From the NCBI GenBank assembly GCA_041589455.1, contig JBFHVQ010000003.1, positions 7,050 to 71,049 of the forward strand: 64,000 bases of DNA, read 5' to 3'. The position numbers and the translations under genes are program-made. This DNA comes from Gammaproteobacteria bacterium (GTDB lineage: Bacteria; Pseudomonadota; Gammaproteobacteria; SZUA-229). Shown here one piece after another: positions 17,616 through 59,100 of the stretch. Under the pieces are notes generated by a model that saw only the letters and a list, made by a program, of their open reading frames with translations, was not told where the DNA came from and searched no databases. Position 1 is the first letter of the stretch; every line of letters starts with the position of its first letter.

Positions 17616-19514
17616 ATGCTGGGACTTATTGATAACAAAGCTAATACTGAGAATAGTGTTCACCATGAACAGATCTGGCGTGAGCAGGTTAAGCGGGTCG
17701 AGCTGAATGCATATTTGTCGAATATTATTAGCCTGGTACTAGCAATAATAACGTCATTTCTGCTTGCAGGAAGTGTCTCTGGAAGTTTGCTGACTGGTTG
17801 GTTGGTGTTTATGCTGGTGGTATCGGCAGCTCGCATGGCGATGACAATGATCAAGAAGCGAAACGCGTCAGTTGAGCTTGAGTATGATCTATTTGGGCCC
17901 TGGTCGATAGTCGCTATTGTGTTGACAGCCGCTGGTTGGGGCGTCAGTGGTTTTCTTTTGTTTCCAGCTGAATATCCAGTGCAACAACTGGTCATTGGCT
18001 TTGTGCTGGCAGGGATAGTGTCAGCTGGTGCTACAGTAATGGCACCAGTGCTTAAGTTGTTTTATACCTATCTCGTGATTGTCGTTACACCGTTAAGCGC
18101 TAAATTATTTCTAATGGGAGGCGAGTTTACGCCATTGGCTTTTATGGTTCTTGGCTATCTGGTAGTGATGCTAATGATCGGCCTGCGGATGCATAAGAAT
18201 ATATTGTCAGCGCTTGAATTACGATTTCATAATGAATCACTGATAAAGTTTATGAGTCAGGCGAGAAATGAATCTGAAGATCTGAATGAAGAGCTGGAAG
18301 CGGGAATTGAACAACGTAAACGTGTAGAGAAAGAATTACAAAAGGCTAAAGAGGCGGCTGAGGCAGCAAGTAAAACTAAGAGCGAATTTCTGGCAAATAT
18401 GAGTCATGAAATTAGAACGCCTATGAATGGAATTCTGGGTACCTTGCAATTGTTGCAGGGGTCAGATATGAGTGAAAGCCAGAAGGAATATGTATCAATT
18501 GCTTATCGTTCTGGAGAGTCATTGTTGTCATTGCTAAACGATATTCTAGATTTTTCAAAGATTGAAGCTGGTAAACTGGAGCTGGAATATATTCCTTTCG
18601 ATGTGAAATCACTGGTTAAAGAGATACTGGTGCTGCTACAACAGAAAGCAGAAGAACGAAAAGTTGAGCTGGTATCTGAGCTAGATGAAAAAATTCCAAC
18701 GCATATATTAGGTGACTCAGTACGAATACGTCAGATATTGGGAAACCTGCTAACCAATGCGATTAAGTTTACAGAAGATGGGAAGGTAACAGTACGAGTC
18801 AGTGTGTTAGAGGAAGATGAAAAGGTTACGCGATTAAAATTTGAAATTATTGATACAGGGATAGGTATTCCGCAGGAGGCGCAAAGAAAGTTATTTAATT
18901 CATTTACCCAGGCTGATGGTTCAACCACACGTAAATATGGTGGTACAGGTCTTGGTCTCGCTATTGTTCGTCAATTAGTGACAATGATGCGCGGGCGGCT
19001 CGGTGTTGAAAGTGAGGCGGGTAAAGGTGCTACTTTCTGGGCTGAAATTGCATTCCAAATTGTTGACGAGGATAAAGTAAATGTTATTCAAGATGAAAAG
19101 GCGCCAGAAGAAATCTTGAGTTTGCAGGGAAAGGCATTGTTGGTTGAAGATAATCCAGTGAACCAGGTTGTAGCCAAAAAAATGCTGGAGAAGGTTGGGT
19201 TGAGTTATGAGGTGGCAAACAATGGCGAGGAAGCGATTAAAAAGCTTACTACAGAGCATGACTTTGATGTTGTGTTAATGGACTGTCAGATGCCGGTTAT
19301 GGATGGTTATGAAGCGACTCAAAAACTGAGAGATTATGAAAACGAGCAGCAGCGACAGCGCATGCCTGTGATAGCAATGACAGCCAATGCAATGGAAGGT
19401 GATAAAGATAAGTGTCTTGCTGCAGGAATGGATGATTATGTAGCAAAGCCGGTAAAACAGCAGTCGCTAAAAGAAACCCTGGCAAAATATTTAGAGGCTG
19501 GCAATACTGATTAG
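17616..19514 (+). CDS. Hybrid sensor histidine kinase/response regulator with a multi-TM integral membrane sensor region (no HPt)
   Basis: 632 aa. There are ~6 predicted TM helices in the first 200 aa, then a coiled coil. HisKA H-box is [17 protein letters not shown]. HATPase_c has DTGIGIP and GGTGLGLAI. The REC domain has [10 protein letters not shown]...[14 protein letters not shown]...KP. Confidence 0.85.
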
Positions 19515-33163: not shown

Positions 33164-35437
33164 TTAGTTGATGAAGTAGCTTTCGATGAGTTTTATTTTG
33201 CTTGCTGCTAGTTCGTTCTTGCCATTGTGTAGTAATTCGCTGGTTTCTGCAGCGATATCGGTGAGGTCTTGATAGCCAAGGCTGCCGCTAATTCCTTTGA
33301 GTTGATGAAGAACGGCATAGGCCTGTTGTAAGTTGTTCTTTTCAAGTGACTGTTTTAGTTCGTCTACGTATATCGGTAATTGTAGTAAGTATTTTTCTTT
33401 TAGATCTCGCAAAATATCATCATGCTGCATGTCGTTAAGAAGTGTCTTTTTCCGTAAATTTAGGGAGTGCGTTTGTGAAGGTTTTTCGGGTTGTGAGTCG
33501 TCAATGGAATTTTCTTGAATTATTTTAGTAACTGCGTTGTTGCCAACGTGTTTCTTGATGCTGTTAACGAGTTCATTAATGTTAATTGGTTTGGTGAGAG
33601 TGTCATTAAAGCCGATTTCCAGGTATTCTCTTTTGTGTTCAGTCAGTGCATCAGCTGTTAATGCAACAACTGGTATTTTATAGTCGTTTGATCGCAGTTC
33701 TTTGATAGCCTGGCTGCCATTCATTATGGGCATTTGAATGTCCATGAGCACCATGTCGTACTGATTGTTGAGTGCAGCTTCTACGCCCTCTTTACCATTA
33801 TTGGCTATGTCTATATCAACGCCATAATCTTCAAGATATGCTTTTACTAGCTGTTGTATTTCGAAGGTGTCTTCAACCAAAAGGATACGTCCAGTAATTG
33901 TAATGTCTGTAAGTGGTTTTTCGAGCTCGGCAATTTCAAGATCTTTTGGTGATATAGCTGTAATGAGATGGTCTTCGTTGGAGTCGTAGTTAGCGCGAAT
34001 CTGACAGGTGAATTGACTGCCAATATCTTTGATGCTTTCTGCGGTGATGTTGCCTCCCATTAATTCAGCAAGGCGTTGGGATATTGTGAGTCCTAGGCCG
34101 GTTCCGCCGAATCGATGAGAGATGGAGGAATCGGCCTGGGAAAATGGTTTAAAAAGATTCAGTTGTTGCTCCAATGTCATGCCAATGCCGGTGTCTTTAA
34201 CTTCAATAGTTAACAGGTCGTCAAGTTCACTATAAGATACATTGATGTCAACTCTACCCTCTTCTGTAAAGCGAATGGCATTACTGGCAAGATTTAGAAT
34301 GATTTGCTTTATTCGTGTTGGGTCGCTGTGTATTTTGCTAGGCAGTGGCAGTGTGTAATTTATATTAAGAAGAATGTTTTTGTTTAATGTTTTTTCGCTT
34401 AATAGCCTGCGAATATGTTCAGTTATTTTAATGATGGATACGGATCTGTTTTCAATTGTTAGTTTGTTGGCTTCGATTTTTGAAAGATCTAGAATGTCAT
34501 TGATGATATGGAGTAGATGATTTCCATTGTGTAAGACAATATCTAGCATGTTGTCCTGATCTTCTTTGCTTTTAGCTTTGTTGTAACGAACGCGTTCTGT
34601 GTAACCTATAATTGATGACAGCGGCGTCCTGATTTCATGGCTCATGTTAGCCAGGAATGCGCTTTTTTGTTGATTGGCTGCTAATGCTTCTTCTCTGTTT
34701 TTAATTTCGTTAATTAAGTCTTTGTTGGCGTGTTGTAATTCAATCTGGTTTAGATTGATGACGTCTAACATTTCATTTAGAAATTTTGAGACAAGGCCAA
34801 ACTCATCTGATCGGTTGCTATCAAGTCGAAGTTTGCTTTCTCCTTTAGAGATGCGTTGAATTCGGGTGATGATTTCATTGAAGGGTTCATGAACGATCTT
34901 TCTGTTGAGCCAGAATAAAAAAATACTGAATAATACGGAAAAGCCAACTATGGCGCTACCAGATTTAACTTGTAGTAATTTCGCACTACGTGAAAGCGAA
35001 GGGAATTCAAAGCTTATCTCGGTGTCGCCATTTGGAATGTTGACTCGTGATGTGATTTGGTAATTGTCTGGGTTAGATGATCCGACTATATAGCTTGTGC
35101 TATTAAGCTCAAACTGTATGTATTCAAGGTTGTTTTGTTTGAGAAAATCAGAAACCATATTGTTTATGGATTCTTCGTCGGCCTGATTCTGTATTAATGT
35201 TTCTATTTGATTTGAAAGCTGTAAGGTTTTCCATGAATATTCTTTTTCAGTGGTCGATTCGAAGGTTGATATGAATGGAACGGTAACAGAAAATGAAAGA
35301 ATAAGTATGATCCACACTGTTACTGCAGTAATTTTTATTGCAATGCTGCCATTCCAGTTGCTGGCCAGGTCTGTTCGTTTCACAGATGAATTCACTATCT
35401 CATTCCTGACCATTTTAGGAACATTGCCATAGGGCAA
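33164..35437 (-). CDS. Hybrid sensor histidine kinase (TM - periplasmic - TM - HAMP - HisKA - HATPase_c - REC - HPt; same domain order as BarA/GacS)
   Basis: 757 aa. H-box [17 protein letters not shown]. HATPase has DTGIGM and GGTGLGLTIS. REC has LLVEDTFEIQ...DMVLMDIQMPIMNG...KP. HPt is LHQLKGISGSLG. Confidence 0.85.
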   Translation of the reverse strand: MPYGNVPKMVRNEIVNSSVKRTDLASNWNGSIAIKITAVTVWIILILSFSVTVPFISTFESTTEKEYSWKTLQLSNQIETLIQNQADEESINNMVSDFLKQNNLEYIQFELNSTSYIVGSSNPDNYQITSRVNIPNGDTEISFEFPSLSRSAKLLQVKSGSAIVGFSVLFSIFLFWLNRKIVHEPFNEIITRIQRISKGESKLRLDSNRSDEFGLVSKFLNEMLDVINLNQIELQHANKDLINEIKNREEALAANQQKSAFLANMSHEIRTPLSSIIGYTERVRYNKAKSKEDQDNMLDIVLHNGNHLLHIINDILDLSKIEANKLTIENRSVSIIKITEHIRRLLSEKTLNKNILLNINYTLPLPSKIHSDPTRIKQIILNLASNAIRFTEEGRVDINVSYSELDDLLTIEVKDTGIGMTLEQQLNLFKPFSQADSSISHRFGGTGLGLTISQRLAELMGGNITAESIKDIGSQFTCQIRANYDSNEDHLITAISPKDLEIAELEKPLTDITITGRILLVEDTFEIQQLVKAYLEDYGVDIDIANNGKEGVEAALNNQYDMVLMDIQMPIMNGSQAIKELRSNDYKIPVVALTADALTEHKREYLEIGFNDTLTKPININELVNSIKKHVGNNAVTKIIQENSIDDSQPEKPSQTHSLNLRKKTLLNDMQHDDILRDLKEKYLLQLPIYVDELKQSLEKNNLQQAYAVLHQLKGISGSLGYQDLTDIAAETSELLHNGKNELAASKIKLIESYFIN

Positions 35438-48586: not shown

Positions 48587-49786
48587 TTATGTGTCATGGA
48601 ACTTACTATACATTATTTTTAGTGATACAGGTGTGAGAAGAGTGGTTAACGCTATTACGATGACCATTGCGGCATGAATTTCTGGATTGAAGATCCCGCT
48701 AATATGACCCAGTTCGGCAAATACTAATCCGACCTCTCCCCTAGGTACCATTGACATACCAATTAGGACGCGAGTCTTCCAGCTCTCATTTATCAATAGT
48801 GCGCCAATAAATTTACTGAATACGGCGATGATAAAAAATACGATCGAGAATTTCCATATAAAGGTTGAGCTCCAGTCAATTTCTCTAAGATCTAGAGACA
48901 TACCAACCATTACGAAAAAAATAGGTGTAAAAAGCTGAATGATTGGCCTCATCTGATCTCTGATGTGTGAAGCAAATACAGGGTCAGTACGTAGTACCAT
49001 TCCAAATGGTAAAAAGAAGCGTCTTGATAAAGCAAGGCCCGCTGCAAAACCACCTATCAGCTCTGGTGCACCAATTACATGGGCTAACCACGCAAAGAAT
49101 AGTACCAATGCTACCATGCTGGTGGGTATTAATCCGGGTATGTGCTCAGTATCTTCATAGCGTTTTATTAAGCCTGAAATAAGTTTGGCCGCAATTGGTG
49201 CACAAAAAAAGAAAACACTCACAAAGATAAATACTTTACTGGCATTAATAAAGCTAACGCCATCGTTGGTACTGAATTCATATAGCAAGGCAAGCAAAAT
49301 AACACCAAGTACATCATCAAGTACAGCTGCGCCAAGGACTATTTGACCTTCTCTTTTGTTGTGCCGTTTTACATCTGATAATACGCGAATGGTAATTCCG
49401 ATACTGGTTGCGGTCAGTGTGCCGCCAACAAAAAGTGATACTAATAGGGAAATATCAAAAAACCAGTAACAGATAAATGCACCAATTAGAAATGGCATGA
49501 CAAATCCAAACAGTGCAACAGTAATAGATTTATTGCCAGCATCAATAAGTCTTTTTATATCAGTTTCAAGGCCAACTGAAAAAAGAAGGAGAATAATGCC
49601 TATTTCGGCGAGTAATTTTATAACTTCATTCGGTTCAAGATAGCCAAGTACGCTTGGTCCGAGGACAACACCAGCTATCAGTTCGCCTATTACGGATGGT
49701 GCGTTGAGTCGTACAGCGATTTCTGCAAACAAACGTGCAGAAACTAAAATGACCAGTAGATGAAGAAAAAAAGTATGTGTTTCCAT
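48587..49786 (-). CDS. Cation:proton antiporter (Na+/H+ exchanger family, CPA2-like, no KTN domain)
   Basis: 399 aa with ~11-12 TM segments. The N-terminus LLVILVSARLFAEIAVRLNAPSVIGELIAGVVLGPS is typical of Kef/NapA-type transporters. Confidence 0.8.
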   Translation of the reverse strand: METHTFFLHLLVILVSARLFAEIAVRLNAPSVIGELIAGVVLGPSVLGYLEPNEVIKLLAEIGIILLLFSVGLETDIKRLIDAGNKSITVALFGFVMPFLIGAFICYWFFDISLLVSLFVGGTLTATSIGITIRVLSDVKRHNKREGQIVLGAAVLDDVLGVILLALLYEFSTNDGVSFINASKVFIFVSVFFFCAPIAAKLISGLIKRYEDTEHIPGLIPTSMVALVLFFAWLAHVIGAPELIGGFAAGLALSRRFFLPFGMVLRTDPVFASHIRDQMRPIIQLFTPIFFVMVGMSLDLREIDWSSTFIWKFSIVFFIIAVFSKFIGALLINESWKTRVLIGMSMVPRGEVGLVFAELGHISGIFNPEIHAAMVIVIALTTLLTPVSLKIMYSKFHDT

Positions 49787-50190
49787 CCTGGTGTCATGAC
49801 TGTTAATTGCATTACTACTAGTCTAATACAATGTAAGCGAGAATTCTTAGTTCTTGAAATGTAAGAGTATTTGGTGAAAGGAATTAAAGGATAGCTATAT
49901 AATTAGATGCTTCTATTAATAAAGATAATAAGACGTATAAGTCTGGCGAATGATTCGTTAAGCCATCTATCCTAAATGGTGAAATAAATACAACTTGAAA
50001 AAGTTAATAATGAGTCACAGTATAGGCTGTTAGTTGTCTAATGATATTGACTATAGAATGTAGAATAGAAGTGTTGAAAAGACTATCAACATTAGAAAAT
50101 TTGGGTGGGCGGAAAATATACTTAATGTGATGATAAATGATTTCTTATAAAATAAATAATAAATCAATGGAAATGACTCATGAGGAGGAG

Positions 50191-52509
50191 TCATAAGCTA
50201 TTATTCATGTTTGTAGCATTGGTAGATAAAAAGTTATTTTCAAGAATGTATGTACGGAATGTATTGATTTCTTCTAAAACTATAGCTGCTTGATGTTCCA
50301 CAAGATCAAATTTAGAGTCTTTCGATTTTAATGTTTCCATTAAAGAGTGAGTAGCATCATGTAGTGACTTGGCCCCAATGACGCAGGTAGACCCAGCTAG
50401 CTTGTGAGTGGAGCTGTACATGTCTAAAGTGTTTTGGTCGTTTAATGCTTGCTGGATTTGGTTTTCATATGTAGCAAGTGACTCAATAAATTCCTTTAAT
50501 AGATTGTCGGCGACAATTTCTTTTCCGCCAACTGCATTAATGGCTAATTGTCTGTCGTAAATGGCATTGCTGCTGTCATCAAAAGAGTCAATGGGCTGTA
50601 TTATTTTATTTTGAGAGCACCATTTAGATATCATATGATAAAGATCTTCAGCTTGATAAGGCTTTGAGAGTAAGTCATTCATGCCTGAATTAAGTGCGTC
50701 AACACGCGTGCCGGGGTAAGCGTGAGCAGTAAGTGCTATTATGGGTGTGGTTTCACAGTTCTTCAGTTGTCTTATTTTAGATGTGGCCTCAAAGCCACTA
50801 ATGTCTGGCATCTCAAGATCCATTAATATTAAATCAAAATGATTTGACTGTGCTTCTTTTAAAGCTTGAATTCCGCTATTAACTGCTACAGCGTGGATAT
50901 TGCGATTTTCTAATAAAGTTGTAGCAACCTGTAAATTTATAGAGTTGTCATCTACAACCATAATAGAAAGGTTAGATAAATCAGTTGTTTCAGTTGATGT
51001 AGTAGGCTCAGGCTCAGGCTCAGTAATGTTTTTTGCAATTTTTAGTGGCAAACATACTGTAAATGTTGTGCCTATGTCAGGTGTGCTCTTAAAGTTAATG
51101 GATCCTTTCATCATTGTAACAAGGCGCTGTGTGATGACAAGGCCAAGTCCTGTTCCGCCATATCGACGCGTGATTGAGCTATCACCTTGATGAAAAGGTT
51201 GGAATAATTTACTTTGATGTTCTAATGGAATGCCAATGCCTGTGTCTATTATTTTAATATTGAGTTCAACGGTATTTTCATTTAGGTGTGTGTGGTTAAG
51301 TTCAATAATGGTTTTTCCCTGATGTGTGAATTTTACGGCATTGCTTATAAGATTGGTCAGGATCTGTTTAAGTCGGACTGGGTCACCGATTAGATGATTT
51401 GGTATTGTGCTGTCTAAATGTGTTTCAAGTGATACGCCTTTATTATTAGCGCCAATTATAAATAGTGATGAAATATCATCAATCATTTCTTTCAGTGAAA
51501 AGCAGCTTTCAACGAGTTCGAGCTTTCCGGCTTCAATTTTGGACAAATCAAGAATATCATTTATTATCTCAAGTAATGAGTTTGTTGATATAGAAATGTT
51601 ATGTACATAGTTTGACTGTTCGTTATCTAGATCAGTGTTTTGAAGAAGATTTGTGAAACCAATTACGCCATTCATAGGAGTACGAATTTCATGGCTCATG
51701 GTGGCAATGAAATCGCTTTTGGCTTTATTGGCGGATTCTGCTTCTAACATTGCTCGTTCAAGATCGTGCGTGCGGTCAATTACTAGTCGTTCAAGATCTT
51801 TTCTGTATGAAGTAAGTTCATTGTCATAGCTATTGATCTGGTTCAGCATAATATTAAAGCCGTCAACTAGAGTCCCGAATTCGTCATTAGTCGTGCGTTC
51901 TGCTCTATGACTGAAATCTTTTCTATTGGCTACATGCTTCATTGTTGAAAGAAGATTATTAATAGGTGTTGAAATTATTTTATGTAACCAGTTGGAGAGA
52001 AAGAGAGCAAGAGCCATAGAGAGTATAAAAATGCCAATGGTCATATATAGTTGTTGCAGTAGAGTCTCTCTTGCCTTGTTCATATTGGCAATAACTTCTA
52101 TATTGCCGATGACTTCATTGTGTATCTGAATGGGGATGTTTGTGATTATATTGTTAAATAAATTCCATGAATTGTTAGTGCCTGATGTGGTGTGAAATTG
52201 ATCGTTGTTACGATATTCAGAGAATACATGATTGTTAATGTCATATATGGTTACTTGTAAAATGTCGGGCTGTGATTTTATAGATGATAGTATCTCGTTT
52301 GTTGCTTTTTTGTCCTGAAATATAATAGCAGCTGTACTGTTGGCGCTTAATATTTTCGCAAGCGATGTAATACGTATTTCAGTTTGACTTCGTGCAGTCC
52401 CATATTCTAATGCCATGAAGAGTGAGAGCGAGACAACTAGAACCATTGCTGCAGTAAACAGGATAATATAAACAAGTTTGTTTTTAATGGAAGAGCTAGA
52501 GAAAATCAT
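50191..52509 (-). CDS. Hybrid sensor histidine kinase (TM - periplasmic sensor - TM - HAMP - HisKA - HATPase_c - REC - HPt)
   Basis: 772 aa. H-box [17 protein letters not shown]. HATPase has DTGIGIP and [13 protein letters not shown] has [11 protein letters not shown]...[14 protein letters not shown]...KP. HPt is THKLAGS. The ATG overlaps the upstream DUF4154 stop (ATGA). Confidence 0.85.
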
Positions 52510-53084
52510 TGATTAGCTTCCATGTTAATAACATTAGCTAAAATCAATAGTCTTGAGCTGATTTCCAGCCCGGATTTTTTTGTGCTACCAATGTTTATGG
52601 TTAGTTTTGTTTGTCCACTGACTTTTTTTAGTTCTATCATGCCTCCATTGTGAGAAAAGTTATCGAAATGCGCGACGGTTAAAATAGGAGAATTCTGGAT
52701 TTTTTGTAAAAAACTTTTGTAATTCTTTTTTTCAGATTGAGCTATGTAAAGCAAATGGCATTTGTATAAATCTGTAGGCGCGATGTTTTTGGTGGTTAAG
52801 GTTTTAGATCTGATCTTTCTGCCGTTAAGATCTTCGAGGTGGTGTGTTAGCTCATCATGTCCTATGGTGCATAGTTTAATGGTGGGCGCTTCTTGTTCCC
52901 ATTTAATGTCTGGCCAGTTAGTGAATTTAATAAAGTTATATATGAAGGCAGCGGTGAATAGCTTGTCGTCATCATGTGTGTGGCCAGATAAAGGCAGCAG
53001 AAATAGAATGAAGAATATTGTGCAGGTGATTCTTCTAAAAATGCTTCTATGTGAATTAGATCTTTGCAATGTGCGTCCTTGCAA
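52506..53084 (-). CDS. YfiR-family periplasmic protein (DUF4154)
   Basis: 192 aa with a signal peptide ([21 protein letters not shown]) and the DUF4154-type core [18 protein letters not shown]. The start is TTG at 53084 or 53069. Confidence 0.7.
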
Positions 53085-53280
53085 TTAAAAGTGTCTGTCG
53101 GTTGTTGTGTCCGTGCTCGCCATGAAATAGGTTGCCCTGTTTTTTTTCTTAGAAAGATGGCGAAGGATTAAGGTAAATTGCTCTTTTTTTAAGAGCCAAC
53201 AGATAATTATTTTTATTACTGGTAAGTCCTTGTCGGACAGTTTTTCTGGCGTTAGAGTATCGGGGTAGATTGATCTCATA

Positions 53281-55323
53281 TTAAAACTTCATGCGTGCTT
53301 CGAGGTAAATGTTACGTTTTGCTAATGGCAAATCATTTGTAATATTACGACCTGTGAATTCTCTTGCATCAGAGTCGAATAGATTTCTAACAGACATAGA
53401 AAACTCCCAGTAATTACTGTTGGAGTACCTCAGTGTTGAGTCAGTAATTGTATGATCGTCTACTGATTGACGGCTGTCATTGCTTCTTCTTTCTCTTTCG
53501 CCGATCCAGCTTGATTGTATGTTCCAGTTGATATTTTCGCTTGGACTCCAGTTCAAGCTAATAAATGCTTGATGATCGGCTTCCTGTATGGCAGGTGGAT
53601 TGTCATCATGTGATCTTGCGGTGTAATTGGCAATGAAGTTGGCGGTATCAGTTGCCTGCCATCTTGCTTCTATCTCAAGGCCTCTAATATTGTGTTTACC
53701 AATATTCTGGTACTGACCGTTATTGTCTCGAGAGATGAGGTCTGATTGTTGTATGTGAAACAAATTTAAAGCCAGTAGCAAATCAGTGTGGAAAGTATAG
53801 TTAAGAGCTAATTCAATAGTTTCTGAACGCTCAGGATCTAATTCAGTATTGGGCGTTGAGAATGAGGTGAATGCGAAAAGCTCATTATATGTTGGCGGCC
53901 TGAAGGCTTTTCCGTAAATAAGTTTTGAAGTTAGCTTTTCTGTGGTTTGCCAGACCAGAGCGGCACGTGGGTTAAAGGTGTTGCCAAAATCAGAATATTG
54001 ATCGTAGCGGGCGCCTGCCGTTAATTCCCAATTGTTATTGATGGTCCAGATGTCTTCAATAAATGCATGTTTGATAATGCGTGACTTTTCAGGGGCAAAG
54101 GCAAACTGGCTGTCGGATATGTCGAGCAGTGGGCTGCCGGCACTTATTGGGTTGCCGTCGGCGTCAGTGCCAAAATTAACCATATGTACTACAGAGTAGA
54201 GGTCCTGCCAGGTATAACCTGTGCCCAGGGTCAGGTTATGATTCTGAAAACCAGAGTAGCTTGTGTGTAGCTGAAGTGTAACGCGTCGTTCTGAGGCATC
54301 GTTGCGATTTATTAGTCCATCAGGGTAGGTGCCTGAGCCATCGGTGTAACCGGGAGGGCGTTCGAAAAATCCTTCGCCAGATGTGTAATCAAGGTGCTGG
54401 TATCGTAGTTCTGCATTCAGGGACCAGTTGTCGTTAAAGTTGGTATTGTTATAGAACAGATCCAGGTTGAAACGAGAATCTTCGCCTTTTGTCAAAGGGT
54501 CAAGTACGCCAAATCCAGTTAGGCCAATTTCAACATCCTGCTGTTCACGGTAATCTGCCTGCAGTCGCCAGTGGTCTTTGGCCAGGGACATTCGTAGGTC
54601 ATGACTTTCCCAGCCGTAGTTTGCGTCGGCAGGTGCATAGCTGGGGCCAATTGCATTCGTCTGGCCGTCGCTTTCGATAAAAGGGGCGTGTCCATTTGTT
54701 CTGGAGAAATCTGCAGTAAAGGCAAATTCATAGCCATTGAAATGATTGCCATGTTGTAGCCACAGGTTTTGGGTGTTAAAGCTGCCGCTTCGTACACCAA
54801 ATTCATTATGCCTGATACGGCTTGCCGTTTTAGTTATGACGTTGACGATGCCCGCTGAAGCGTCAGCGCCAAATAGTGCAGAACCTGGGCCGCGGATGAC
54901 TTCTATGCGTTCAATGATGCTGGCGGGAATACCCTTCCAGAAAATCCCCAGGTTCCAGGTCAGGTCTTTCAGTGAGTTGCCATTGATCATTACCAGCGTT
55001 TGGTTTCCGGTTGTTCCGCGAAACTGTATTAGTGGCCTGTTTGCAAACTGGCTGGATCTTATGTGTATGCCTGGAACGGTCTGTAATGCCTCTGTAAGGT
55101 TTGTTGCGCCACTGGCTTTAATTTCATCAGCGGTTATCAGGCTGACTACAGCAGGTGCTTTGCTTGCAGTGCGCTTGGATGTCGTGGCTATAGTGGTTTC
55201 GAGACTAATGAGTTCTTCAAGGCTTAGTGAGAGAAAGTGGTCGAGTTGGTGGCTGGCGTGAGCGGTATATATAGGGGTTTGGCTGAGTGCAATTAATGCA
55301 CACAAAGAATAAGGTTTAAGCAT
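53281..55323 (-). CDS. TonB-dependent outer-membrane receptor
   Basis: 680 aa with a signal peptide, a plug domain (VVSLITADEIKASGATNLTEALQTVPGI...IEVIRGPGSALFGADASAGIVNVITK), a long beta-barrel and a terminal aromatic residue (...YLEARMKF). Confidence 0.9.
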   Translation of the reverse strand: MLKPYSLCALIALSQTPIYTAHASHQLDHFLSLSLEELISLETTIATTSKRTASKAPAVVSLITADEIKASGATNLTEALQTVPGIHIRSSQFANRPLIQFRGTTGNQTLVMINGNSLKDLTWNLGIFWKGIPASIIERIEVIRGPGSALFGADASAGIVNVITKTASRIRHNEFGVRSGSFNTQNLWLQHGNHFNGYEFAFTADFSRTNGHAPFIESDGQTNAIGPSYAPADANYGWESHDLRMSLAKDHWRLQADYREQQDVEIGLTGFGVLDPLTKGEDSRFNLDLFYNNTNFNDNWSLNAELRYQHLDYTSGEGFFERPPGYTDGSGTYPDGLINRNDASERRVTLQLHTSYSGFQNHNLTLGTGYTWQDLYSVVHMVNFGTDADGNPISAGSPLLDISDSQFAFAPEKSRIIKHAFIEDIWTINNNWELTAGARYDQYSDFGNTFNPRAALVWQTTEKLTSKLIYGKAFRPPTYNELFAFTSFSTPNTELDPERSETIELALNYTFHTDLLLALNLFHIQQSDLISRDNNGQYQNIGKHNIRGLEIEARWQATDTANFIANYTARSHDDNPPAIQEADHQAFISLNWSPSENINWNIQSSWIGERERRSNDSRQSVDDHTITDSTLRYSNSNYWEFSMSVRNLFDSDAREFTGRNITNDLPLAKRNIYLEARMKF

Positions 55324-56137
55324 CGTATGTTATCGGCTTTTGTGATTTTACTATTCAAAATATACTACCAACTATAATAGCGCAAGTTCACAGTAATGAA
55401 TCCTGGATAAATCGTGGTGTGTCGGTGATTGTGATTGTGAAAATTTTAGATAAGGGACTGAAAAACTTCCATGTGTTAGCTGCAACTAGTGATATGTAAG
55501 AAAATGATAGCGGACTTATCATGTATGTATATGGTGCATGAAGATAAGGGAGATAGCGTACAAATGTGTAGTGTTGATTGTGTTTGAGGTGTCAGATGTG
55601 CTCGTGGGATCATAATGTGGCCAGAGATTGTTACCATAAATTGGCCGTATTTAGCATCAAATAAGAAGTCGATTCTAATAATGCTAAGGTTCTGCTGTAT
55701 CAGCAGGCTGTGTAAAAACTCAAAATATTTTAGGCTGGTGGGGGCTCACGCCTAAATTCACGCACTCATATAGCAATAAAGCAAAAATAAAACTCACTTG
55801 AAATGAGTTATTGGATAATAATAACTTTCATTTCCCAACTTCAAAAAACATATATAGTTTTTACACGGTCTGTCAGGAAAGCGGGCGAGTTACCTAAAAT
55901 AGCAAGAGGCAGAAATCGGCCAGAAGCAGCCAGTTCTCCTTGTCATTACAAGCCAGGCGAGAATCTTTCAATTCTCTCACCATCTTTGTAGATAGCCAAA
56001 AATAGACACGAAGTCCTCTTTCTCGGTTTCGATCAAATTATCTCATATACATCCATTTTTGTCTGACATAAATCAATTCTATCACGAGTAAAGATGAGTA
56101 AAATTTGTGTATATGCAAGCCAAGGGAGGGCGGGCAA

Positions 56138-59100
56138 ATGTATATCTACAATCTTTCTGTTAGAGTTGTTTTTGTCCTGTTTTTCACGCTCGCAGCAGTA
56201 AGTTGCGGTGGTGGTGGAGGCAGTAGCGGCAGTAAAGACAGTGGCGGCGGAGACGGATCGGATGATACGGAGCTTGTGACCGGACAGTTTATCGATGCCG
56301 CGGTTGAAGGTCTGGAATACCAGTGTTCTACAGGTGAATTTAGCGTCAACCGGGGAACGACCAACAGCAACGGGGAATTCACTTGCCCTCAAGGAGATTC
56401 TGTTACCTTCTACCTGGGGCATATCCAGCTGGGGACGGTAGCCGCGGATGGTGCAGTGGTCACGCCTTACAATCTGTATCCAGGGGATGGCCAGTCAGCA
56501 ATTAATCTTTCTAGGATTTTGCAGTCGATAGATGTTGATGGCGATGTCAGTAATGGTATTACTGTTAATGATGCATTGGTCAATAGCATTCCCGCAGATG
56601 CTGACATGTCCAGCACAAATTTTGGGGATTACATCACTAGTACAACCTCTATTACGCTCGTTACAGAAGCGCAAGCTCAAGCGCATTTAAATCAAACGAT
56701 TATTGAATCGATTGCTCCAACAACAGCACCGGTTGCTAACGCAGGTGCCGATCAGACTGCTTTTATTGGCAATACGATCATTCTGGATGGATCAGCATCC
56801 AGCGATGCTGATGGGGATTCATTACAATATACCTGGTCCTGGTATCGTAAACCTGTTGGCAGCACTGCAGAGTTTCTGAGTCAAGGAGGTGATGGCAACA
56901 GTTTTGTCGCTGATGTTTCTGGTTTGTACACGGTTAGTCTCTGGGTTTTTGATGGTCATGTGACTGTTTTTGATCGTGTAAACATTACCGTAAATATCGA
57001 ACCTGACCGCGGTGATGCCAGCCTGTCTTCGTTGATACTTTCCTCCGGCGAATTCAGTCCCGAATTCGATCAGGCCACTTATGTTTATAGTGCTGAATTC
57101 GCCAACAATGTAAGTTCAATCACGATCACTGCTATTAGCTCACAGCCTGGTGTTGCACTCTTAATGAATGGTGATTCTATTGTGAGTGGCGAAGAGAGTG
57201 CTTCAATTCCTCTATCCGTTGGAAGTAATACCATTGAAATTGAATCTACAGCACTTGATGGTATGACGACTCGTACGTACGTGATTACGGTTACACGCCT
57301 CGCGAATTCAAATCAGACACCCGTTGCGGATGCAGGCGATGATCAGGTCGTGACGTCTGGAGTACAGGTTAATCTTGATGGTTCCGGTAGTAGTGATAGT
57401 GATGGCGACAATCTGACCTATTCGTGGAGTTTTGTTTCGATGCCAGGTTCGAGCAACGCAGTTTTATCCAGCAGTAGTGGTGTCTCACCATCATTCTTAG
57501 CAGATCTCGGTGGTATCTATACCTTGCAATTGATTGTATATGATGGACAGGCCAATAGTGCTCCTGATCAGGTGGCCATCACGGCAACCAGTGTTCCGGT
57601 TGCCAATGCCGGTCCTGATCAGACTCTTCAGGCTGGTAGTGTTGTTTACCTTGATGGCAGCGGTAGTAGTGACAGTGATGGTGATAATCTGACTTATTCG
57701 TGGAGCTTTCTTTCTGTTCCTCAATCAAGCAGCGCTGTATTGTCAGACAGCAGCAGTGCTACGCCAAACTTTACTACCGACCTCAGTGGTAACTATGAGG
57801 TTCAATTGATTGTTAACGATGGCCAGAGTGACAGCGTTGCGGACATTGTTATCATCCTTGCCGAAGAATTGTCATCAGGATGGATGCACCCACTCAGCGA
57901 AGATAGCCATATTAGTGTTGCTGGCGCCTCAGGTATTTTGCAAACAGCAGTGAATAATCAGGGTCAGGCCATCGCAGCCTGGACTACTGGTGATGGCGGC
58001 ACGGATTGCGGAGGATATGAATGCGCCCAGGTATTTGTCAGTCTTCACGACAATGGTAGCTGGACCCAAATTGCAGGCCTTAGTGACAACATCAGTCCCG
58101 ATGGCTTTAATGCCAGCGATGTAAGGGTGGCAATAGATGATACCGGCGACGCCATCGTTGTATGGCGAATGAATACTGCCTGGAACTCATTATGCGGTTC
58201 TTACACGTCGCAATGTAGTCACATCTATATGAGTGAGTACCGTGATGGCTCCTGGTCGCACCCAGTTGATATGAATGATCATATTGATCCCAGTCGAGTG
58301 AATAACGTTTCACAGAGGCCCAGGGTGGCAATGGCTGATAATGGTGAAGCCGTCATCGTATGGCAATCTCAGTCAACCTCGGATGTCGGTAATATTGGTA
58401 TCTATAAAAAAGAATATCGCAACGGTAGCTGGACACAGCCAGCGACAACCGATTTTATACCGAAATCATACTGGAATCCCGAAGTAGCCATGGATGACAG
58501 CGGCAATACCCTTATTGTCTGGCAGTCCAGTGATAGTAATTATCATAGCCGCTTATACCTAAGTGAATATCGTGGTGGTACCTGGAGTCATCCGAGTGAT
58601 CTGGATGCCGATGCCTTCAATCCTCCTGGTCAGGTCTGTCCGGGAATAACCTGCCCGATTCCAGTTAACATTGCCATGGACAACAACGGAAATGCCATCA
58701 TTGTCTGGGATCAGCGTACCACGACTTATGCAGACTACTACGATGGTGCAATCTACAGGAGTGAGTACCGCAACGGTAGCTGGACACATCCTGCAAACGT
58801 CAACGACACTGTTAACTCAGGTGAAATGACCGACTGGGCCCGTTACCCTGAGGTCGCCATGGATAACAATGGCAATGCGTTGATTGTCTGGGCACAGAAC
58901 GACGATACACTCGATTGTATGGTTTCACCTCCCAATGTATATGGTTCATTTGAATGGCCTTGCCAGCAGATTTTTGTGAGTGAATTCCGCGATGGCAGCT
59001 GGACCGAACCGCTGAACAAGTCCGACCATATCAGTCTTCCCGGTCAGCCTGCACACGCTATGCGTAGTAGTACTATCAAGTCCTACTCGGTGGCCATGAG

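Follow-up and report, generated by a model that had tools for sequence, protein, structure and literature searches.

The question raised by this locus was whether three adjacent genes, which encode a TonB-dependent receptor, a YfiR-like protein and a hybrid histidine kinase, work as one signalling system across the cell envelope. The genes occupy positions 50191-55323 of a 64-kb stretch of a gammaproteobacterial contig (JBFHVQ010000003.1), and this whole stretch is called the window below. A sequence-only reading had proposed that they form a conserved module comparable to the YfiBNR system, with the receptor in the place of the outer-membrane partner. We found the trio to be a divergent representative of a YfiR/YfiN variant that is widespread and catalogued but mechanistically unstudied, with a receptor of a different clade and a BarA-like phosphorelay kinase. 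Taking the partner-switch mechanism as a whole, we lean towards the view that the three products act together as a single YfiR/YfiN-type sensory unit that spans the envelope.

The three co-directional open reading frames that had been described were all found on the minus strand, head to tail, as follows (TM, transmembrane segment).

53281..55323, minus strand: TonB-dependent receptor gene, an open reading frame of 680 amino acids (P0001) with a signal peptide, an N-terminal peptide, a plug, a predicted 22-strand barrel and a C-terminal Phe
53085..53280, minus strand: receptor/YfiR-like intergenic spacer, containing a weak hairpin (53196-53180) and extending to 53070 should translation begin at the second TTG
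52506..53084, minus strand: YfiR-like (DUF4154) gene with a predicted periplasmic product of 192 amino acids from TTG 53084, or 187 amino acids from TTG 53069
50191..52509, minus strand: hybrid (unorthodox) sensor histidine kinase gene, 772 amino acids (P0003), TM-CHASE8-TM-HAMP-HisKA-HATPase-REC-HPt

The YfiR-like gene ends, and the kinase gene begins, in a shared ATGA at 52506-52509, as had been noted, and by this overlap the two genes are predicted to be translationally coupled. Assembler contigs from marine metagenomes (four runs of one study) tiled positions 49500-56300 at at least 99% identity, and pieces of these contigs crossed both the receptor/YfiR-like and the YfiR-like/kinase junctions; the gene arrangement is therefore not an assembly chimera.

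One genome per species (GTDB representatives) was scanned with a profile of the YfiR-like protein, the best 80 loci were kept, and their open reading frames were searched with the window's receptor, YfiR-like protein and kinase pieces. Genes on the same strand and at most one gene away were counted as neighbours. As the loci were picked by similarity, their proportions describe this YfiR-like subfamily and not all DUF4154 proteins, and several of the remaining loci were cut by contig ends. A CHASE8-type sensor was encoded in 65 of the 80 loci and a TonB-dependent receptor in 62, and both were present in 51; the earlier view of the trio as a conserved module is strongly supported by this. The order of the genes varied: receptor, YfiR-like protein and sensor followed one another in 40 loci, whereas the order was YfiR-like/sensor/receptor in five, sensor/receptor/YfiR-like in three, YfiR-like/receptor/sensor in two and sensor/YfiR-like/receptor in one. 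This shuffling points to selection on the neighbourhood rather than to simple inheritance. The 80 loci spanned Gamma- and Betaproteobacteria, Thermodesulfobacteriota, Acidobacteriota, Nitrospirota, Nitrospinota, Planctomycetota, Bacteroidota and others. Even among the 18 partner sensors that resembled the kinase of the window least, every one carried CHASE8 and HAMP domains, with a kinase ATPase domain in 14 and GGDEF in three. In further support of the linkage, pairwise distances correlated among the three module proteins (r = 0.60-0.67, Mantel p = 0.001; uncorrected for species phylogeny). Cultured carriers of related modules include Fluviicoccus keumensis DSM 105135 (L025), Zoogloea oryzae NBRC 102407 (L063) and Thalassolituus oleivorans MIL-1.

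In the 20 closest loci, which came from metagenome-assembled genomes (MAGs) of Thiodiazotropha, Thiotrichaceae, Chromatiales and Gallionellaceae, only the receptor, YfiR-like and kinase genes were consistently common. The closest genome copies were 58-61% (receptor), 44% (YfiR-like protein) and 48% (kinase) identical to those of the window, the kinase being 48% identical over its full length to that of locus L006, and the clade of the window's receptor was shared with the Thiodiazotropha, Thiotrichaceae and Chromatiales MAGs. In some of the 20 loci, tatB/tatC lay a few kb off, as in the window, and this synteny together with the shared trio argues for a vertically kept chromosomal module. Neither a response regulator nor a TonB system was a shared neighbour in the close orthologous loci. 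It could be argued that three unrelated units have come to lie side by side by chance, and the spacer between the receptor gene and the downstream pair would fit this. However, in the close orthologous loci the trio recurred mostly in the same order between different flanking genes, and the YfiR-like and kinase genes share the ATGA overlap; such a fortuitous neighbourhood is contradicted by the comparative data and hardly credible.

Variant arrangements were also observed. In three loci (L047, L054 and L062; an unclassified Pseudomonadota MAG and two contigs of a Desulfonema limicola MAG), alternating receptor/YfiR-like pairs stood in tandem with no kinase gene between them. Another locus (L045:5884-16491) contained two tandem YfiR-like/kinase pairs with receptors on the flanks.

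Modules of this kind have been catalogued. NCBIfam release 20 contains models for a cassette of the same three-gene, one-strand architecture, namely NF053590 (TOL_0244 family receptor), NF053591 (TOL_0243 family YfiR-like periplasmic protein) and NF053592 (sensor histidine kinase, YfiR-like protein-associated), and its receptors share the N-terminal peptide described below. The window proteins differed in that they matched these models below each cut-off (150.5 vs 645, 103.7 vs 125 and 160 vs 194 bits, respectively) and in that the receptor belonged to a separate clade. Kinase-output YfiR/CHASE8 pairs were likewise known: Malone et al. (2012) described, in silico, distant YfiN/YfiR pairs with kinase, hybrid-kinase, HPt or methyl-accepting chemotaxis protein outputs, and neither that paper nor its supplement mentions a TonB receptor or the link to one (PMC3375315). 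Full-text searches of the literature found no experimental or mechanistic study of the trio; the description of the module as conserved but experimentally uncharacterised thus fits, with the NCBIfam models in place and no mechanism paper. The TOL_0244 protein was up sevenfold in the Thalassolituus oleivorans proteome during growth on the n-C28 alkane (PMC6304351), and no experimental data on it other than these proteomics were found in the literature.

The identity of the YfiR-like protein was supported at the levels of family and fold. It matched Pfam PF13689 (DUF4154, 'YfiR/HmsC-like') with an E-value of 1.6e-36 and 126 bits against a gathering threshold of 24.9, covering 139 of the 143 profile positions, in agreement with the earlier assignment. 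The length of 192 residues given with that assignment stood only in so far as an open reading frame does begin at TTG 53084. The second TTG (53069) is the likelier start, as it is preceded by AAGGA six bases upstream, and the database copy of the protein (P0004) begins there; the true product is probably 187 residues long, and the spacer would then measure 211 bp. When all PDB sequences were searched with phmmer, YfiR from P. aeruginosa was the sole match (E = 2e-4). The AlphaFold2 model of the protein had a predicted local distance difference test (pLDDT) score of 88, and the top 15 PDB matches returned by Foldseek were all YfiR, with TM-scores of 0.74-0.82 on the target and root mean square deviations (rmsd) of 2.5-3.6. 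The nearest solved structures after YfiR were those of a small 'substrate-binding protein' from Rhodothermus marinus (PDB 5z6v, 6k1x and 8wgl; TM-scores of 0.53-0.58 on the target), which could be remotely related to the DUF4154 fold.

Upon alignment with YfiR, we found the two proteins to be similar but not identical in their cysteines and helices. Cys72 and Cys109 of the window protein aligned with Cys71 and Cys110, the redox-sensitive pair of YfiR (PMC4655355), and were nearly invariant in 31 relatives. In contrast, the cysteines of the Cys145-Cys152 disulfide of YfiR had no counterparts, so that this structural disulfide is absent from the window protein. In the family alignment, the first helix contained the block AAFIYNF.KFT.WP and the last helix the block L.ISSRLL.LA, both invariant and peculiar to this subfamily; the corresponding regions of YfiR form its conserved partner-binding surface (PMC4655355), although the last helix of YfiR lacks the SSRLL that is invariant here. 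The protein also scored below the canonical YfiR equivalog NF053586 (50.8 bits vs a cut-off of 85). Because the Cys145-Cys152 pair is absent and the equivalog cut-off was missed, we consider the protein a relative of canonical YfiR at the level of family and fold and not an orthologue. In a search of 1.84 billion proteins from public data, the subfamily profile matched 22,818 clusters at 50% identity. The best-scoring representatives of that search (P0074 and P0075) were 342-378 residues long and contained two tandem DUF4154 domains.

The third protein of the module contained all elements of a TM-periplasmic-TM-HAMP hybrid kinase with REC and HPt domains, as had been proposed, and the guess of a CHASE8-type sensor was confirmed by the Pfam search. 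The features of the kinase gene were as follows.

52093..52374, minus strand: CHASE8 periplasmic sensor domain (residues 46-139; Pfam CHASE8, 3e-16)
52318-52332, minus strand: AAIIF patch of the CHASE8 domain (residues 60-64), located by script
50272..51723, minus strand: phosphorelay core of HisKA, HATPase_c, receiver and HPt domains, from Pfam
51691-51693, minus strand: H273 of the HisKA domain, located by script
50818-50820, minus strand: D564 of the receiver, located by script
50404-50406, minus strand: H702 of the HPt domain, located by script

All Pfam domains scored above gathering, including CHASE8 (59.9 bits vs 27), HAMP (36.6 vs 25), HisKA, HATPase_c, Response_reg and Hpt. Hydrophobic segments at residues ~12-34 and ~153-175 flanked the CHASE8 domain, and the three phosphorelay residues H273, D564 and H702 were all present. 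No Pfam match to GGDEF was found in the kinase, whose output part is HisKA-HATPase-REC-HPt. A PDB sequence search with the CHASE8 part gave no meaningful match. The periplasmic domain of YfiN is now re-classified as CHASE8 (PMC8085984), and a conserved 'AAVVF' patch on YfiN was predicted to be the YfiR-binding site (PMC3375315). The AAIIF of the window's kinase corresponds to this motif. In an alignment of 64 sensors encoded beside YfiR-like genes, conservation within the periplasmic domain was highest at NS.AA..F.D, and AAxxF.D was at least 90% conserved.

Of the curated kinase models, the BarA model NF008318 scored best with this protein (528 bits, aligned from residue 7). The kinase resembles BarA/GacS in its overall TM-periplasmic-TM-HAMP-HisKA-HATPase-REC-HPt architecture but differs in its CHASE8 sensor and in the coupling of its gene to a YfiR-like gene, and its score lies far under the cut-off of 890; identity as a BarA/GacS orthologue was rejected on this score. 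Two further hybrid kinases are encoded in the window: one at 33164-35437 on the minus strand (757 amino acids, REC and HPt present, N-terminal sensor unassigned), which is 33% identical to the trio's kinase from the HAMP domain onward, and one at 17616-19514 on the plus strand (632 amino acids, with REC and without HPt). Among the three, the trio's kinase had the highest BarA-model score (528 vs 359 and 408 bits). No stand-alone receiver protein was found in the 64-kb window, where REC domains occurred only in the three hybrid kinases; within these limits, the earlier statement that no cognate response regulator lies nearby was correct.

The receptor matched Plug (4e-24, residues 54-159) and TonB_dep_Rec_b-barrel (3.8e-47, residues 278-648), began with a plausible signal peptide ending in TAHA and ended in ...RMKF, with an aromatic C-terminal residue. 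Its AlphaFold2 model had a mean pLDDT of 87.9 and a predicted TM-score of 0.88, and the best Foldseek matches were BtuB, PfeA, FepA and Cir, with TM-scores of up to 0.87 on the target. As modelled, the receptor appears to be a complete, ordinary-looking TonB-dependent transporter with a plug and a 22-strand barrel, and its TonB dependence is predicted. The substrate was not assigned by curated models, as the closest of these (siderophore, B12 and heme) all scored far under their cut-offs and the fold matches were generic. No STN signalling domain was present among the Pfam matches at E<=0.01, which comprised the plug and the barrel only, and a FecA-type transducer identity was rejected for want of this domain. 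The FecA-FecR-FecI transducers are alike in that a candidate signalling element stands at the receptor N-terminus beside the TonB box. They differ in that the window's receptor, without STN, has ~30 mature residues before the plug, and in that the module contains no anti-sigma or extracytoplasmic function (ECF) sigma gene; its partner is a soluble YfiR-like protein and its output a two-component phosphorelay.

Between the signal peptide and the plug, all aligned module receptors shared the consensus d-L-x-x-L-S-L-E-E-L-M-x-x-x-V-T-S-x-S-K, and the window's version of it was located as follows.

55171..55245, minus strand: N-terminal peptide of the mature receptor (residues 27-51, LDHFLSLSLEELISLETTIATTSKR), from the alignment of module receptors; an 'LSLEEL' element and, after it, the TonB-box position

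We take the second half of the peptide to be the TonB-box position, placed by comparison with the N-terminus of BtuB; the LSLEEL part sits in front of this position as an extra element. The peptide was kept across phyla in all module receptors although their barrels were only ~20% identical. Its retention extended over two clades of receptors, as NF053590 was matched at E<=1e-60 by 21 of the 51 and not by the window's clade. In the AlphaFold2 model, residues 15-40 of the receptor had pLDDT values below 50 with some helical propensity, so that the low-pLDDT peptide resembles, in the model, a flexible linear interaction motif. No PDB match to the N-terminal 50-residue piece of the receptor was found.

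The linkage was also followed in the reverse direction. Metagenome contigs were scanned with a degenerate DNA pattern encoding EELMNIEVT, regardless of neighbouring genes, and the resulting sample consisted of 46 complete receptors followed by 600 bp or more of sequence, 44 of them decidable. A DUF4154 gene lay directly downstream in 34 of the 46 and after a second receptor in one, and two were undecidable; thus, 35 of the 44 decidable receptors selected by their peptide adjoined a DUF4154 gene. The CHASE8 sensor was also present in 17 of the 19 positives with enough room. The linkage between the receptor peptide and DUF4154 therefore runs both ways and is not absolute.

From these comparisons, we propose the following mechanism. 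The YfiR-like protein would be exported to the periplasm, where it would bind the CHASE8 domain of the kinase at the AAxxF patch and set the kinase signalling state; by homology with the YfiR-YfiN pair, in which YfiR is the repressor, this step is likely. The TonB-dependent receptor would serve as the dedicated outer-membrane input: ligand occupancy and/or TonB action would expose the LSLEEL peptide, the YfiR-like protein would be captured or released, and the kinase would be freed or loaded. By analogy, the receptor may thus act like YfiB, by sequestering the YfiR-like protein. Of the ways to read the comparative data, an input through such an LSLEEL partner switch is the most economical, and we put it forward tentatively. 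As output, a phosphorelay would run along His273 -> Asp564 -> His702 to a response regulator whose gene would lie elsewhere, and the Cys72/Cys109 pair may add redox sensitivity, like Cys71/Cys110 of YfiR. The contacts between the proteins and the sign of the regulation are what we infer here; the domains, fold, motifs and two-way genomic linkage were observed.

The same receptor model can be read in another way. The receptor may only transport a small ligand into the periplasm, which the YfiR-like protein, akin in its fold to one half of a type I periplasmic binding protein, would bind and present to the CHASE8 domain without ever touching the receptor, much as LuxP serves LuxQ and TorT serves TorS. 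Consistent with this, the modelled receptor is a complete, ordinary transporter, the next-best structural matches behind YfiR are small substrate-binding proteins and an ABC-type binding domain with bound L-Trp (also PMC4655355), and the sevenfold rise of TOL_0244 on a long-chain alkane is what a nutrient transporter might show (PMC6304351). However, import followed by sensing leaves unexplained why receptors whose barrels are only ~20% identical, and whose ligands presumably differ, keep the same N-terminal peptide, and why this peptide predicts a DUF4154 neighbour. Moreover, the most conserved residues of the YfiR-like protein lie in the first and last helices, which form a protein-binding surface in YfiR and no ligand cleft (PMC4655355). 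We regard this alternative as rather unlikely.

The region between the receptor gene and the downstream pair bears on a further alternative. The spacer of 196 bp with a weak hairpin, as it had been described, was present when counted from the first TTG, and it is probably 211 bp long by the second; the hairpin, terminator-like at 53196-53180, has a stem of 6 bp, and its T tail is poor. Folding of the spacer did not differ significantly from shuffled sequences (z = -1.9). In the close orthologous loci, the corresponding spacer measured 4-282 bp, and in distant loci the two genes often overlapped by 12 bases. Such a spacer and hairpin would suit an operon with two functions, in which the YfiR-like/kinase pair is a self-contained periplasmic sensor of redox or envelope stress through Cys72/Cys109, in the way proposed for YfiR, and the receptor gene is co-regulated or a target, with no sensory input. 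The conserved cysteine pair, the 14 of 80 loci that had a sensor and no receptor nearby, and the existence of YfiNR pairs without an outer-membrane partner (PMC3375315) are also compatible with it. This explanation nevertheless appears improbable: the adjacency is two-way and holds in many phyla despite the shuffled gene order, a dedicated receptor family and a dedicated peptide exist, and the kinase-less loci L047, L054 and L062, with their receptor/YfiR-like pairs, some of them repeated, tie the YfiR-like protein to the receptor itself.

Several observations weigh against the proposed partner switch in a single sensory unit. The trio is not obligatory: besides the 14 loci just mentioned, 11 of the 80 had a receptor without a sensor. 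Nine of the 44 decidable peptide-bearing receptors had no DUF4154 neighbour, and a dedicated TonB paralogue might be what the peptide serves. The mirror-tree correlation given above carries no correction for species phylogeny. To these are added the 196-211-bp spacer with its weak hairpin, which parts the receptor gene from the pair, as well as the missing structural disulfide and the score below the YfiR equivalog cut-off.

To place the module among known systems, we compared it with YfiBNR (TpbB/DgcN-YfiR-YfiB) of P. aeruginosa and E. coli and with HmsCDE of Yersinia. In these, as in the window, a gene for a DUF4154/YfiR-fold protein adjoins one for a TM-CHASE8-TM-HAMP protein; the AAxxF sensor patch and the redox-sensitive cysteine pair are kept in YfiBNR, and the gene for an outer-membrane partner lies within the same cluster. 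Differences from YfiBNR concern the two ends of the pathway. Its output is a GGDEF cyclase, whereas the window encodes a hybrid histidine kinase with REC and HPt, and its outer-membrane partner YfiB is an OmpA/Pal-like lipoprotein, whereas the window encodes a 22-strand TonB-dependent receptor. No YfiB-like OmpA/Pal lipoprotein was found in the gene cluster, where the receptor gene is the only one for an outer-membrane protein. The analogy with YfiBNR that had been drawn from the sequence was therefore supported on the YfiR side by the fold and on the YfiN side by the CHASE8 domain and the AAxxF patch.

The regulatory signals around the genes were few. Upstream of the receptor gene, the best match to a Fur box (13/19) was typical of random 800-bp windows here, and no riboswitch was found among Rfam matches at E<=1, which agrees with the earlier reading on both counts. 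Promoter and terminator scans returned sites no more numerous than in shuffled sequences. Directly after the kinase stop, a short inverted repeat (ATGACTC...GAGTCAT) with a T-rich run behind it may form a weak terminator. An Rfam match below threshold, to SdsR_RyeB at 50132-50223 on the minus strand (27.5 bits vs a gathering threshold of 38, E = 0.09) overlapped the kinase stop codon.

The module is flanked by a Na+/H+ exchanger gene and a gene for a large PKD/SBBP surface protein. A non-coding region of 814 bp (55324-56137) separates the receptor gene from the latter, which is divergent and encodes 1579 amino acids, and only weak promoter-like matches and no Rfam match were found in this region. 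The GC content was 0.35-0.37 in the kinase and YfiR-like genes, compared with 0.45-0.49 in the 5' half of the receptor gene and ~0.45 in the flanks; recent acquisition of the AT-rich genes is disfavoured because the tatB/tatC synteny is kept in relatives. We also observed a 6-base in-frame deletion at 51004, in the kinase gene, in contigs of metagenome runs X1 and X2 and not of X4, which represents population-level variation.

The interest of this locus lies in the class of trios rather than in the window's copy, which comes from an uncultured marine gammaproteobacterium. To our knowledge, the only role described for YfiR is the repression of a single diguanylate cyclase, in a few pathogens. 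Most of the sampled members of this subfamily adjoin a dedicated TonB-dependent receptor and a CHASE8 kinase, and not YfiB and a cyclase. It is conceivable, although we hold it to be somewhat doubtful, that such trios represent a general and mechanistically distinct route of TonB-dependent signalling, in which a receptor without a signalling domain would act through a disordered LSLEEL peptide on a YfiR-like shuttle that gates a CHASE8 sensor; in this genome, the BarA/GacS-like relay might then feed a Gac/Rsm-type cascade. If the receptor does signal through its N-terminal peptide, TonB-dependent receptors would have a second route for passing information inward, besides that of sigma and anti-sigma factors.

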